Below, one piece after another: positions 46,337 through 50,370 of a DNA stretch of 64,000 nucleotides; positions within the stretch are counted from its first letter, which is position 1, and each line of letters begins with the position of its first letter. The DNA is from Bacteroidota bacterium (GTDB lineage: Bacteria; Bacteroidota; Bacteroidia; Bacteroidales; VadinHA17). The translations under genes and the position numbers were made by a program. Location of the stretch: assembly GCA_022709665.1 (NCBI GenBank), contig JAKLIJ010000001.1, forward strand, positions 2,131 through 66,130, written 5' to 3'. Under the pieces are notes generated by a model, which worked only from the letters and a program-made list of their open reading frames with translations, did not search any database and was not told where the DNA came from.

Positions 46337-47620
<1,284 letters not shown>

Positions 47621-47642
47621 TAAGAGATAAACTGTTTTTCCG

Positions 47643-47677
47643 ATCCCCTGCAGCCTCCTGCTGCAGGGGATTTTTTT
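47643..47677 (+). terminator. Rho-independent terminator of eno
   Basis: 11-bp stem atcccctgcag/ctgcaggggat with a 7-nt loop, followed by ttttttt. It lies 23 nt after the eno stop. Confidence 0.88.
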
Positions 47678-47830
47678 CTTCTCTTACCTCCGGACCTTGT
47701 TTGCATTGCCCATGGGCAAAAGTAGTATTTAAGCAACCTAATATCTTATTTAATAATTAAACACAGAGTTATTAACAATTGTTGATAACTTATGTTTATA
47801 TCCCGTGTACAACAACAGATATCCTCTACA

Positions 47831-47860
47831 TTGCCATATCATATTCTTAATATATATTTG
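47831..47860 (+). promoter_or_regulatory. Candidate Bacteroidetes-type promoter (aTTG-N19-TATATTTG)
   Basis: TTG at 47831-33 and a TAnnTTTG match TATATTTG at 47853-60, with no ORF downstream for >600 nt. Confidence 0.4.
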
Positions 47861-47864
47861 ATCT

Positions 47865-48360
47865 ATCAGGTGAGCGATAAAAGACTGCTCAAATGATGTG
47901 GAACAGGAAAAGGCTTCTTAGCTGAAGCAAGATCAGGTTCGGTCATACCCTCGGGAATGCACATCAGGAGAGCCGAAGCCCTGGCAAATGAACTCCGGTT
48001 CAGGATACCAGGCAGATCGATGAAACCGGAAACGTTCTTTCAACGATTCAGTCACAGGGCAACAGGTGTAAACGTGCTTCGGCACGTGAATATCTGCAAC
48101 TGGTACAGATCCTCCGGGAAATGACACCAGCAGCCTGAATGACACTTCGTCCCGGAAGTCCAATCGCAAGAAAGGACAAAAGGACAGCCGGAAGGTGACG
48201 CTGTAACAGGCATTACCTGAAAGCCATGGGTTGAAAATCCTGGTCTTGTATCAGGAAGCTCAGCCGGTCAGAATAACAGTAACCTGACGCCGCAAGCGGC
48301 TTCGGTTGCAAACGGTGAATGGGAACTACTCCTCGGAATGGTTCCCATTACTGTTTTATA
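47865..48360 (+). ncRNA. Candidate structured non-coding RNA or long attenuator-type leader (unclassified)
   Basis: It lies in an 857-nt ORF-poor gap. There is a promoter-like element upstream on the + strand and a 3' hairpin GGGAAC(48321-26)/GUUCCC(48341-46) followed by AUUACUGUUUUAUAUAU. Internal hairpins: acgtgc-UUCG-gcacgt 48072-87; ccg-caa-gcggc-UUCG-guugc-aaa-cgg 48290-315 (two G.U pairs that favour the + strand); nested GUCC/GGAC pairs 48149-85; gcuuc/gaagc 47913-28. The boundaries and strand are inferences. Confidence 0.4.
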
Positions 48361-48477
48361 TATATCCTCATTAAAATCCTCCCTGATACCAGCCTTATTC
48401 TTAATCCCCTCTTTTACCCCACAGCCTTGCCTTTTTTTACTTCTTTTAGGTAACTTTGACTCAATTATTCCCAGATT

Positions 48478-50370
48478 ATGCCTTATTCCGGACTGACAGA
48501 TTTTATTGCCCGCCTCGACCATGCCGGTGAACTTCACCGGACAAACGCTTTTGCAGATCCTGTTCTGGAAATAGCCGAAATAACAGACCGGATAGTTAAA
48601 ACCGGGGGCAAAGCGCTCCTGTTTGAAAATAACGGCACCCGTTTCCCCCTTCTGATGAATGCTTACGGTTCAGAAAAGCGGCTGTCGATGGCCCTTGGAA
48701 CCAAAGATATTTCAGAGACCGGACGGGAACTTGAGAAGATCTTCAACATGCTGACCGGCTCCGGCGATTTGAATTCAAAGCGGATAAATTCGCTGCCTCA
48801 CTTGCTGCGGATTGCCGGATATCTTCCTCATAGAACCCGCAAACGGGGAAAATGCCAGCAGATCATCCACAACAAACCCGACCTGTCAATTCTACCGGTA
48901 CTTAAATGCTGGCCGTACGATGGCGGAAGATTCATTACACTGCCGGTGGTGCACACCTGCCATCCTGTTACGGGAAAGACAAATGCCGGAATGTACAGGA
49001 TGCAGGTTTTTGGCCCCGATACCGCCGGTATGCACTGGCACAGGCATAAGACAGGAGCAAACCATTATGAGGAATGGAAGAAGACAGGTAAAAAAATGCC
49101 TGTTTCAGTATCTCTGGGAGGTGATCCCGTGTATGCATATTGTGCAACTGCACCTCTGCCTGAAAATATAAGTGAATACATTCTTGCGGGTTTCCTCAGG
49201 AAAAGGAGGGTGAGACTCGTGAAATGCCTTACTAATGACCTTTATGTCCCGGCCGACGCAGATATTGTTATCGAAGGATATGTAGATCCGGCTGAGCCTC
49301 CCGTCAGGGAAGGTCCTTTTGGCGATCACACCGGCTTTTACAGCCTGGCCGACCTTTACCCGGTTTTTCATGTCACCTGCATCACACACTCGGCCGATGC
49401 CGTATATCCCGCCACTATCGTCGGGATACCACCCCACGAGGACGCATTGCTCGCCATGGCAACCGAGAAGATTTTCCTGTCGCCGATGAAGCTGGCCATT
49501 CAACCCGAAATAGCTGATTTTCACATGCCGGAAGCCGGAGTTGCTCATAACCTGGTTATAGTGAAAATCAACAAGAGCTTCCCCGGTCAGGGGATGAAGG
49601 TAATAAGCTCACTGTCGGGAGCCGGACAGATGATGTTCTCGAAGTACATTGTGGTGGTAAGCGGCGACGTTGACATAAGGAATTACCGGGAGCTGGCAAC
49701 CCATATTTTTGAGAACACAGTGCCGGAAAGGGATTTTGTGTTTACAACGGGACCGATGGATGTTCTGGATCACTCTTCCGATAATTTTTCATTCGGAGGC
49801 AAGGCCGGAGTGGATGCGACGGTAAAACTCCCCGAAGAAAAAGGAGGGATTCAATCATCAGCAGCACCCTCGGAACAGGCCGGCAGTGACCCTGCAACCG
49901 TTCTGAATGCAACCTTCATAAAAGGATTCAGGGAGTACCTGATAGACGGAAGGAATGATCTTCTTCTTGTTGGCGCCAGCCCTTCGGAAGATCCCGGCAG
50001 TGTTCGTAAGATATGCAGGCTTCTGAAGGAGAATTATGACAAGCTGAAATACCTGTTGGTGCTTGTGGTTGACCATACAGTCGACCTGGATGATTTGTAT
50101 ATGGCGGCCTGGCAGGTACTTGGAAATTCCGACCCCAGGAGGGATCATTGTTTTATTGCACCCGGCTCGATCCTGATCGACGGTACCATCAAGGTTTTCC
50201 GAGAGGGCGGATTCCCACGGCAATGGCCTAACGTTGTATGTTCTGACAGGAAAACAATTGATAGTATTGACCAAAAGTGGGATTCCTTTGGATTTGACCG
50301 GTTCATTCCTTCCTTCTCACTCAAATACTCCGGGCTTACAAGAGATGGCGGGGATACCGTATCCATTTAA
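48478..50370 (+). CDS. UbiD-family (menaquinone-biosynthesis-type) decarboxylase with extended C-terminus
   Basis: 630 aa. N-terminus ..L.DFI..L...GEL.R......P.LEI.EI.DR..K.GG.ALLFEN..G...P...N..GS..R.. with central ..GMYR.QV.......MHW..HK.GA.H.., typical of UbiD. The C-terminal ~175 aa extend beyond the usual end of the domain. Confidence 0.85.
   Translation: MPYSGLTDFIARLDHAGELHRTNAFADPVLEIAEITDRIVKTGGKALLFENNGTRFPLLMNAYGSEKRLSMALGTKDISETGRELEKIFNMLTGSGDLNSKRINSLPHLLRIAGYLPHRTRKRGKCQQIIHNKPDLSILPVLKCWPYDGGRFITLPVVHTCHPVTGKTNAGMYRMQVFGPDTAGMHWHRHKTGANHYEEWKKTGKKMPVSVSLGGDPVYAYCATAPLPENISEYILAGFLRKRRVRLVKCLTNDLYVPADADIVIEGYVDPAEPPVREGPFGDHTGFYSLADLYPVFHVTCITHSADAVYPATIVGIPPHEDALLAMATEKIFLSPMKLAIQPEIADFHMPEAGVAHNLVIVKINKSFPGQGMKVISSLSGAGQMMFSKYIVVVSGDVDIRNYRELATHIFENTVPERDFVFTTGPMDVLDHSSDNFSFGGKAGVDATVKLPEEKGGIQSSAAPSEQAGSDPATVLNATFIKGFREYLIDGRNDLLLVGASPSEDPGSVRKICRLLKENYDKLKYLLVLVVDHTVDLDDLYMAAWQVLGNSDPRRDHCFIAPGSILIDGTIKVFREGGFPRQWPNVVCSDRKTIDSIDQKWDSFGFDRFIPSFSLKYSGLTRDGGDTVSI

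Follow-up and report, generated by a model that had tools for sequence, protein, structure and literature searches.

The gap between eno and a UbiD-family gene, in the 64,000-nt stretch of DNA analysed here (the window), encodes, with a probability that we put at roughly 0.8, a stand-alone, highly structured non-coding RNA of about 495 nt belonging to a family outside Rfam 15. The original prediction had noted a structured non-coding region between the two genes, and that observation is confirmed. Of the two identities offered for it, the one supported is a free-standing RNA of an unrecognised class: promoter and terminator are conserved, the pairing covaries among 90 non-redundant homologues, and nothing in Rfam 15 matches. 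The promoter and the terminator are the RNA's own and are kept together with it, as expected of an independent RNA gene, and its base pairs are maintained by compensatory substitution beyond controls, as expected of a structured RNA. The gene and the elements around it are as follows.

47642–47672, + strand: intrinsic terminator of eno, a 13-bp stem with a T run, found by terminator scan, outside the RNA
47768–47789, no strand assigned: palindrome GTTATTAACAATTGTTGATAAC, 20–22 bp, about 95 nt upstream of the RNA start
47793–47813, + strand: second upstream element TGTTTATATCCCGTGTACAAC, seen directly in homologous upstream sequences
47831–47860, + strand: Bacteroidetes-type promoter, with the −33 TTG (47831–47833), N19 and the −7 box TATATTTG (47853–47860)
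47864–48357, + strand: RNA gene, about 495 nt, from nhmmer and BLAST homology, alignment A1, consensus folds and covariation
48451–48458, + strand: −7 box of UbiD, TAACTTTG, 19 nt before the ATG at 48478

The 5' and 3' ends of the RNA are predicted from the promoter box and the terminator U tail, respectively. As described originally, GC content is normal in the core, and the DNA to its left is AT-rich. The start given for the feature holds only in part, as the conserved unit reaches further upstream, to about 47768. On the right, the G-poor pyrimidine tract at 48361–48450 is real in this genome (GC skew −0.67) but is not conserved in homologues, and it is not part of the RNA feature. The + strand folds with an MFE of −184 kcal/mol (z = −7.3 against shuffles), more strongly than the minus strand (z = −4.1 against shuffles). 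Moreover, the consensus fold contains G.U pairs, either invariant or frequent, that would become A.C on the opposite strand, and the + strand is therefore the RNA strand.

Homologues were found in 13 GTDB Bacteroidales species and on at least 120 metagenome contigs, the latter selected by the pattern GCCRGYCANAATAACAGTARYCYGR, taken from the segment 48266–48287. Every contig selected in this way (at least 120) carries the whole RNA, and nhmmer recovered every one of these copies. Together they yield 90 non-redundant full-length copies of 281–618 nt. Across species the RNA retains 70–83% nucleotide identity, while the corresponding UbiD proteins are just 54–65% identical. Judging by the sequences recovered, the family is widespread in environmental and digester Bacteroidales.

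When 13 genomes were folded with RNAalifold, 106 pairs were obtained, 45 of them compensatory. On each of five measures, all 500 shuffles fell short of the real alignment, and the fraction of paired cells is 95.8%, compared with 27–42% when the partners were slid. Refolded, the 90-sequence keep-length alignment yielded a poorer structure, as its variable regions misalign; the 13-genome structure was therefore scored on new sequences instead. On 77 independent sequences, 92.7% of cells were paired (26–41% in the slid controls) and 64 of the 106 pairs showed compensatory changes. The fold of the main clade (67 sequences) comprises 140 pairs, with 94.9% paired. Mutual information computed over all column pairs left the top non-nested pairs scattered and clade-like, with no run of adjacent pairs, and we therefore claim no pseudoknot. 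A pairing between the invariant AAUAACAGUA and the terminator tail UUAYUGUUUU was considered and set aside: the two are complementary here, but their variation is one-sided.

From 5' to 3', the RNA is built of these parts.

47866–47882, + strand: 5' strand of H1, UCAGGU (47866–47871, pairing with 48282–48287), then the invariant junction GAGCGAUAAAAG
47883–47973, + strand: 5' strand of H2 (47883–47886, pairing with 48266–48269) and the 5' domain
47975–48148, + strand: middle domain, closed by H8 (47975–47978 with 48145–48148), from the main-clade fold of 67 sequences
48149–48265, + strand: three further branches of the central junction (H13, H15/16 and H17)
48266–48287, + strand: 3' strand of H2, GGUC, then the invariant junction AGAAUAACAGUA and the 3' strand of H1, ACCUGA
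48288–48317, + strand: 3' hairpin with a UUCG loop, outside the closing helix; 11 pairs, most of them compensatory
48318–48357, + strand: terminator hairpin AAUGGGAACUA...UGGUUCCCAUU (48318–48349) and tail ACUGUUUU

The pairs of H1 vary as UA/CG/UG, AU/GC and GC/GU/AU, with no unpaired cell at five of the six, and the junction GAGCGAUAAAAG that follows does not vary in alignment A1. H3 and H4 lie in the 5' domain, together with a long hairpin with a conserved CUUAnnUGA loop (47913–47928) and a UUCG-type hairpin (47944–47959), and helices 3–7 are 90–100% paired, with compensatory changes. The middle domain consists of a hairpin at 47980–48012, a GAUCG...CGAUU hairpin with the conserved GGAAACGUUCUUUCA (48015–48048), and a sub-domain of two hairpins, one with a cUUCGg loop (48074–48085) and one at 48100–48130. 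This domain is partly or wholly missing in family members of 281–408 nt (L015–L017, L092 and others) and is, on this pattern of loss, dispensable. Beyond it come H13, a GUCC/GGAC helix with a variable tip (48149–48185), H15/16, a hairpin with conserved GGAAGG and UGUAACAGG (48187–48224), and H17, a GGGUUG/CAGCC helix with a variable tip (48229–48265). H2, H3, H8, H13, H15/16 and H17 are predicted to meet in a six-way junction with linkers of 0–4 nt. The four hairpins picked out by eye in the original prediction (47913–47928, 48072–48087, 48149–48185 and 48290–48315) are all helices of the consensus fold. Compensatory changes are seen directly in the last three, and they are also found in the 5' domain, in which the first one sits.

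In this architecture, H1 closes the molecule by pairing the 5' end with a site that lies about 70 nt before the 3' end. Inside H1 come an invariant A-rich internal loop (GAGCGAUAAAAG opposite AGAAUAACAGUA) and then the compact multi-helix junction, whose peripheral domains can be lost or expanded to give members of 281–618 nt. The GGGAAC/GUUCCC hairpin and U tail, proposed as a terminator or attenuator, are present and nearly invariant, and they are kept in all full-length members. In A1, 8 of the 13 pairs of the stem never vary, and its GGG/CCC is invariant in 77 further sequences. This near-invariance across the family suggests a role for the stem beyond termination.

At the other end of the gene, TTG and TAnnTTTG form the established consensus of Bacteroidetes promoters. 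The promoter match proposed upstream of the RNA, TTG-N19-TATATTTG, is indeed present: of 101 distinct homologous upstream regions, 96 have a TAnnTTTG box at this position, and a generic sigma-70 scan also marks 47831–47858. Further upstream, the palindrome, whose motif can also be written TTAACAATTGTTAA, has a single match in the 64-kb window and none in shuffles. Most homologous upstream regions retain it, even where the genomic context is unrelated. The loci fetched, 1.53 Mb of DNA that comes mostly from around RNA copies rather than from whole genomes, contain 89 matches with at most two mismatches, all of them 40–160 nt upstream of an RNA copy. The palindrome is thus a candidate operator, at which a dimeric transcription factor specific to the RNA gene would bind. 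None of the FNR/CRP, Rex, Zur or LacI-type sites considered fits it. The second element, TGTTTATATCCCGTGTACAAC, resembles a direct repeat GTTnA-N7-GTTnA, takes the form GGTTGAT-N4-GGTTGAT or TGTGAAC-N5-GTTCACA in divergent members, and is possibly a site for another regulator. On these motifs, expression of the RNA is probably under the control of a specific DNA-binding regulator, and a dedicated operator at the promoter suggests regulated rather than housekeeping expression.

The neighbouring genes appear to be transcribed separately. Since eno has its own terminator, its transcript is separate from the RNA gene. On the other side, a TAnnTTTG box lies within the last 70 nt of the RNA-UbiD spacer in 67 of 91 distinct spacers (7% in shuffled ones), at a median distance of 20 nt from the start codon. 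This sequence signal points to a promoter of UbiD's own, and with such a −7 box UbiD would not rely on the RNA promoter.

These observations bear on the second identity that had been proposed, a very long cis leader (attenuator or riboswitch) of UbiD, whose fold would sense a signal and choose between termination at 48318–48357 and read-through; we consider it improbable. A UbiD gene does follow the RNA in the main clade (about 90 loci), always on the same strand. There is also a strong terminator 120 nt before the UbiD ATG, with a stem sequence as unusually conserved as would be expected for alternative pairing, and the main-clade RNA is like known attenuators and riboswitch leaders in being structured and in ending with an intrinsic terminator shortly before a gene on the same strand. 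Unlike them, however, it has no obligatory downstream gene: about 25 divergent members have no UbiD downstream or nearby, L139, L172, L093 and L181 are followed by a gene on the opposite strand, and sister Bacteroidales have eno-UbiD gaps of 78–160 nt without the RNA. The RNA-UbiD spacer is unconserved, ranging from 27 to 455 nt; the downstream gene has the promoter signal described above; and the roughly 430 nt that precede the terminator are far above any known aptamer. Inspection of the alignments revealed no conserved antiterminator partner for either arm of the terminator. GUUCUU at 48035–48040 was the single candidate; it belongs to the middle domain, and minimal members lack it while retaining the terminator. 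The proposed leader is therefore unsupported. At the same time, with UbiD constantly on the same strand in the main clade, read-through remains conceivable there, and the RNA may have some functional coupling to UbiD in those genomes.

It is very unlikely that the free-standing RNA is a highly divergent version of a known one (RNase P, tmRNA, 6S, SRP, OLE, GOLLD, ROOL, raiA or HEARO/omega RNA) missed by the Rfam models. By analogy, its size range of 280–620 nt, 5'-3' closing helix, A-rich invariant junctions and modular peripheral domains would suit such an RNA. Against this, a scan of the whole window with the 4227 families of Rfam 15 at gathering thresholds gave no match in the RNA, the outcome that the original check for a known family had left to be seen. 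Likewise, cmscan of 47500–48600 with permissive filters had no match to the RNA at E values up to 10, and ten loci with divergent members were empty at E up to 1. Weak Rfam matches in this region are confined to the eno terminator hairpin. ARAGORN found no tRNA or tmRNA in the window, and the P4 strands of RNase P (GGAAAGUCC ... ACAGAAnCCGGCUUA) are missing from the family consensus; the absence of RNase P and tmRNA signatures that had been reported from inspection thus stands. We also considered GGAAGUCC at 48155–48162 as a P4 element and rejected it, as it sits in a variable hairpin tip and is unconserved in homologues. With regard to HEARO/omega-type RNAs, no IscB, TnpB or reverse-transcriptase gene is adjacent to the RNA in more than 100 loci. 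In the literature searched we found no description of the RNA, including by searches with its invariant sequence strings.

We give equally little credence to the idea that the RNA is a component or remnant of a mobile element, with the palindrome as its recombination site. The stretch from palindrome to terminator is a discrete module of about 600 bp, present or absent between eno and UbiD and occurring in several unrelated contexts; an IS110-like transposase (read from sequence, not scanned against a family library) follows the copy L175, and L099 has an extra partial 3' copy of the RNA. However, this IS110-like case is the only transposase or integrase found adjacent, the position is fixed in the main clade (about 90 loci), and the RNA is single-copy per locus. 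BLAST of the RNA against plasmid and phage collections gave no match, and the palindrome stands at a fixed distance from the conserved promoter, as an operator would.

Finally, a decayed protein-coding or small-protein gene with incidental structure is scarcely credible: family members do contain stop-free stretches of 49–165 aa, mostly on the minus strand, and ORFs of 78 and 89 aa are present on the minus strand of the window, but 47621–48477 lacks a credible ORF, as had been claimed (its six longest have no Pfam match at E up to 1), the median stop-free stretch of 96 aa is only slightly above the shuffled median of 78 aa, column variability is equal over codon phases (0.197, 0.197 and 0.195), 141 of 155 gap runs have lengths not divisible by three, entire domains come and go among members, and the pairs covary as given above.

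A free-standing structured RNA with its own promoter and terminator invites comparison with the large RNAs already known from bacteria. OLE RNA (RF01071) is perhaps the most instructive: it is likewise large (about 500–600 nt), multi-domain and strongly covarying, it comes from a mostly anaerobic lineage, it is present as one chromosomal copy, in a conserved neighbourhood with isoprenoid/quinone-related genes, and its function, too, could not be deduced from sequence. The two share no sequence or CM similarity, however, and the present RNA belongs to Bacteroidota rather than Bacillota, has no adjacent OapA-like partner gene (nor is any other partner protein gene consistently adjacent to it) and, unlike the operon-embedded OLE, has its own promoter with a dedicated palindrome. 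ROOL and GOLLD (RF03087, RF01998) resemble it in being ornate, with a conserved core and a variable periphery, mainly metagenomic and of unknown function; they differ in that there is no CM match and that the present RNA has no association with phage or tRNA genes. ROOL and GOLLD assemble into RNA-only multimers (PMC12286853), and by analogy this is one possible mode for the present RNA. The raiA RNA is abundant, structured and free-standing; it has a promoter and a terminator of its own and lies near a neighbouring gene without regulating it (PMC12968392). The raiA motif (RF03072) is thus similar in being free-standing, in having its own promoter and terminator and in its unknown function, but is about 200 nt long and comes from Bacillota and Actinomycetota, and its CM has no match here. 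RNase P type A (RF00010) shares the size range, the 5'-3' closing helix, the invariant purine-rich junction strands and the dispensable peripheral helices; here the differences are that neither RF00010 nor RF00011 matches even at E = 10, that the P4 consensus is missing, and that the promoter of the present RNA carries a dedicated candidate operator.

As for expression, transcription would start a few bases after the −33/−7 promoter and end at the RNA's own hairpin-plus-U terminator. Two RNA-virus contigs of metatranscriptome type, from IMG samples 3300037613 and 3300037736, carry sense fragments of the RNA fused on at the 5' side. These fusions are probably cDNA chimeras, and they give a hint that the RNA is abundant. 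A search of viral contigs for ones starting at the transcription start, with the 5' pattern GRTGAGCGATAAAAGRC, produced 11 matches, all due to chance. The RNA would act in trans through its three-dimensional fold: it may form the core of a ribonucleoprotein, bind a ligand or protein, self-assemble or be catalytic. Antisense pairing and a role as a cis leader are both unlikely. On balance, we lean towards an undescribed class of large ornate RNA, with the standing of OLE, ROOL, GOLLD or raiA and specific to anaerobic environmental Bacteroidales, that would combine a compact multi-helix core with a promoter under a dedicated regulator and serve as a ribozyme, RNP core or self-assembling RNA in a process with which no RNA has yet been connected.

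To our knowledge, few large structured RNAs exist in bacteria beyond the ribosome, RNase P, tmRNA and self-splicing introns, and each new class (OLE, GOLLD, ROOL, raiA) has started work on RNA architecture and on unknown biochemistry. The present family is well suited to such follow-up, with at least 90 diverse sequences, a natural minimal version of 281 nt, clean gene boundaries and a clear secondary structure that includes a compact multi-way junction. Control of a UbiD-family decarboxylase by a giant leader in these bacteria is a false lead that is now removed, and the dedicated promoter element should lead to the regulator, and hence to the condition in which the RNA is needed.

The interval between eno and the UbiD-family gene holds no credible ORF on inspection, as had been noticed at the outset, and none of its six longest ORFs matches Pfam at E up to 1; the GC profile computed here also agrees with the one first described. 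Within it lies a predicted structured non-coding RNA of ~495 nt (below, the RNA), whose parts and surroundings are listed here.

Features of the eno–UbiD interval (window coordinates; the RNA and its helices on the plus strand, helices as in the predicted consensus fold)
47620, 3' end of eno
47642-47672, strong terminator of eno itself
47768-47789, perfect or near-perfect palindrome GTTATTAACAATTGTTGATAAC / GTTATTAACAATTGTTRATAAC upstream of the RNA
47793-47813, second upstream element, apparently a direct repeat
47853-60, TAnnTTTG box directly before the predicted RNA start
47866-71 with 48282-87, H1, closing the molecule
between H1 and H2, invariant A-rich internal loop
47883-86 with 48266-69, H2, opening into a predicted six-way junction (linkers 0-4 nt)
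47887-47973, 5' domain, junction branch
47975-48148, middle domain, junction branch
48149-85, H13, junction branch
48187-48224, H15/16, junction branch
48229-65, H17, junction branch
48288-48317, UUCG hairpin, outside H1
48318-48357, terminator, outside H1
48451-58, predicted UbiD -7 box TAACTTTG
48478, start of the UbiD-family gene

The UbiD protein of the window is the same on 24 near-identical metagenome contigs, with identical gene order. Near-identical contigs (L001-L004) give three start calls for rplQ (L17; 45704-46246) of 157, 161 and 180 aa, so that its true start is uncertain.

Scanning the UbiD protein against one genome per GTDB species yielded 80 loci. BLASTN and nhmmer found the stretch from ~47768 to 48365 conserved upstream of UbiD in 12, every one a Bacteroidales MAG and some with the label Rikenellaceae. 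Nucleotide identity of the RNA is 70-83% in nine of the 12, the other three (L015-L017) matching in segments only, while the adjoining UbiD proteins are 54-65% identical across the same species; the non-coding stretch, conserved more strongly than the protein encoded next to it, is under its own selection. An alignment of 13 RNA sequences from GTDB Bacteroidales genomes shows invariant single-stranded blocks (GAGCGAUAAAAG, CUUAnnUGA and AAUAACAGUA) plus a AAUGGGAAC/GUUCCCAUU hairpin, and between them helices whose two strands change in step, with entire domains kept in some members and missing from others. Taken from the best-conserved block, a degenerate pattern, GCCRGYCANAATAACAGTARYCYGR, matched at least 120 contigs of a metagenome collection, whose names show activated sludge and one Tara Oceans sample among the sources, and nhmmer found the RNA in 120 of the 120 contigs listed. 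After collapse at 96% identity there were at least 90 full-length members of 281-618 nt. Many metagenome contigs (for example L096, L177, L112, L118, L161, L171 and L179) have one of their ends at the RNA or within it, the pattern expected where assemblies break at a sequence common to co-occurring species, as at rRNA genes. On contig L099 a full copy (646-1202) is preceded by a partial copy of the 3' half (299-494) with a terminator-like hairpin, which looks like a local duplication.

The plus strand of 47860-48360 folds with an MFE of -184 kcal/mol (z = -7.3 against dinucleotide shuffles, vs -4.1 for the minus strand). RNAalifold on the 13-sequence alignment gave 106 pairs, 45 of them with compensatory changes; none of 500 column shuffles matched the observed value on any of five measures, and 95.8% of cells were paired vs 27-42% with partners slid by 1-3 columns. 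Because this structure came from the very sequences it was scored on, we scored it independently on 77 non-redundant metagenome sequences, added to the alignment by sequence only with no structure used: 92.7% of 7,992 cells were paired vs 26-41% in slid controls, and 64 of the 106 pairs were compensatory, each type occurring in at least two sequences. A separate fold of 67 main-clade sequences (140 pairs, 94.9% paired, 61 compensatory) also resolved the middle domain. Several G.U pairs are invariant or frequent, among them 14/447 (G.U in all 77 sequences) and 394/430 (U.G in 60 of them); they would mismatch on the other strand, so the RNA is that of the plus strand. Each hairpin listed in the original prediction turned out to be a helix of this consensus architecture. 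The middle domain is partly absent in members of ~405 nt and wholly absent in L017 (330 nt), L092 (281-284 nt) lacks both it and H13, and some members are enlarged to 530-618 nt.

TAnnTTTG is the established Bacteroidetes -7 consensus, and the promoter proposed earlier holds up in this box, which is kept in 96 of the 101 distinct homologous upstream regions among the matches listed. The hairpin and U tail previously read as a terminator are likewise present in all full-length members, suggesting that the RNA is its own transcription unit, with predicted promoter and terminator. Conservation extends upstream well past the core promoter, the palindrome and second element accompanying the RNA even amid entirely different flanking genes. 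All 89 palindrome matches (≤2 mismatches) sit 40-160 nt upstream of a copy of the RNA, with none elsewhere in the 1.53 Mb of fetched DNA, a sample biased toward surroundings of the RNA. The palindrome may thus be an operator bound by a regulator that serves this gene alone, and we know of no operator consensus that fits it; promoter elements dedicated in this way suggest that expression is conditional, not housekeeping.

The alternative raised originally, that the region is a long cis-regulatory leader or attenuator of UbiD, draws on the gene order rplQ-eno-RNA-UbiD on one strand, found at most loci among the matches listed (five have rplQ-RNA-UbiD). About 25 divergent members among the same matches, however, have neither usual neighbour. 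Judging from ORF translations, the upstream gene is presumably citrate synthase in L119 and L181, and the downstream gene arginyl-tRNA synthetase on the opposite strand in L139 and L172 and acetyl-CoA transferase in L115; several further loci have the downstream gene on the opposite strand. Directly downstream of the divergent copy in L175 (450-1772) is what we take to be an IS110-like transposase, the sole mobile-element gene adjoining any of more than 130 copies. Conversely, in 11 other Bacteroidales among the 80 genome loci (L018-L022, L024, L033, L036-L038, L042) eno stands directly before UbiD, mostly with rplQ upstream, and the gap of 78-160 nt contains no RNA, vs 711-1731 nt where it is present. 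The adjacency therefore either predates the RNA or is independent of it, with UbiD ending the ribosomal-protein/rpoA cluster in the Bacteroidales, and the RNA and its promoter region together make up a discrete module some 600 bp long. The spacer between RNA and UbiD is unconserved (27 to 455 nt, unrelated in sequence among relatives); the almost G-free pyrimidine tract seen earlier (48361-48450) does exist, but as part of this spacer rather than of the RNA, and is specific to the window's organism. UbiD also has a predicted box of its own: 67 of the 91 distinct spacers listed carry TAnnTTTG a median 20 nt before its start, vs 7% of shuffled spacers. By context and predicted signals, then, the reading as a UbiD leader or attenuator is not supported.

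Nor does it match a described family. Rfam 15 gave no match at gathering thresholds in the whole 64-kb window, only weak matches at E up to 10 in 47500-48600, all at the eno terminator, and nothing in the RNA at E up to 1 in ten loci with divergent members. ARAGORN found no tRNA or tmRNA, and RNase P P4 strings are absent from the family consensus, GGAAGUCC occurring in the window within a variable hairpin tip; this agrees with the early impression of no RNase P or tmRNA signature. Plasmid and phage collections contained no match, and literature searches, including the invariant strings, found no relevant description; within Rfam and the literature searched the family is undescribed. A protein-coding gene, intact or decayed, is the weakest reading: column variability is equal across the three codon phases (0.197, 0.197, 0.195), 141 of 155 gap runs in the 13-sequence alignment are not multiples of three, and longest stop-free stretches are in slight excess (median 96 aa vs 78 aa in shuffled sequences), indicating that the region is not coding.

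A pattern from the 3' part of the RNA matched two IMG/VR contigs, one with a dicistrovirus-type capsid polyprotein (Dicistro_VP4, Rhv domains) and the other with a tombusvirus p33-like ORF; because both encode RNA-virus proteins, they must stem from RNA-derived data. Sense fragments of different RNA subtypes (L207:1790-2071 and L208:2770-3259, both minus strand) are fused to the 5' side of the virus contigs, that in L207 stopping just before the terminator hairpin and that in L208 inside the 3' UUCG hairpin. Real capture is unlikely, as two unrelated eukaryote-type viruses would both have had to take up a Bacteroidales RNA; the simpler reading, and the probable one, is template switching in cDNA synthesis or a chimera made in assembly with an RNA that is abundant. 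If they are chimeras, they would be indirect evidence for transcription in the predicted sense and for abundance of the RNA in those samples.

The comparisons thus describe a conserved, independently signalled and strongly structured predicted RNA gene. Covariation in independent sequences, its own promoter and terminator signals and its varied contexts favour the free-standing RNA originally offered as one option, and we put the probability of a stand-alone structured RNA gene at about 0.8. Such an RNA would act in trans via its fold, because its conserved nucleotides belong to the junctions and loops of a compact core of several helices rather than to an accessible antisense stretch, members can do without its peripheral domains, it has no linked target gene, and the stem of the terminator keeps its sequence, which hints at a contact with a protein or a tertiary one. 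It may serve as the core of a ribonucleoprotein, sense a ligand or a protein, act as a ribozyme, or self-assemble as an RNA of the ROOL/GOLLD/OLE kind. That the class is both undescribed and functionally distinct is somewhat better than an even bet, and the RNA most likely represents a new class of large bacterial non-coding RNA.
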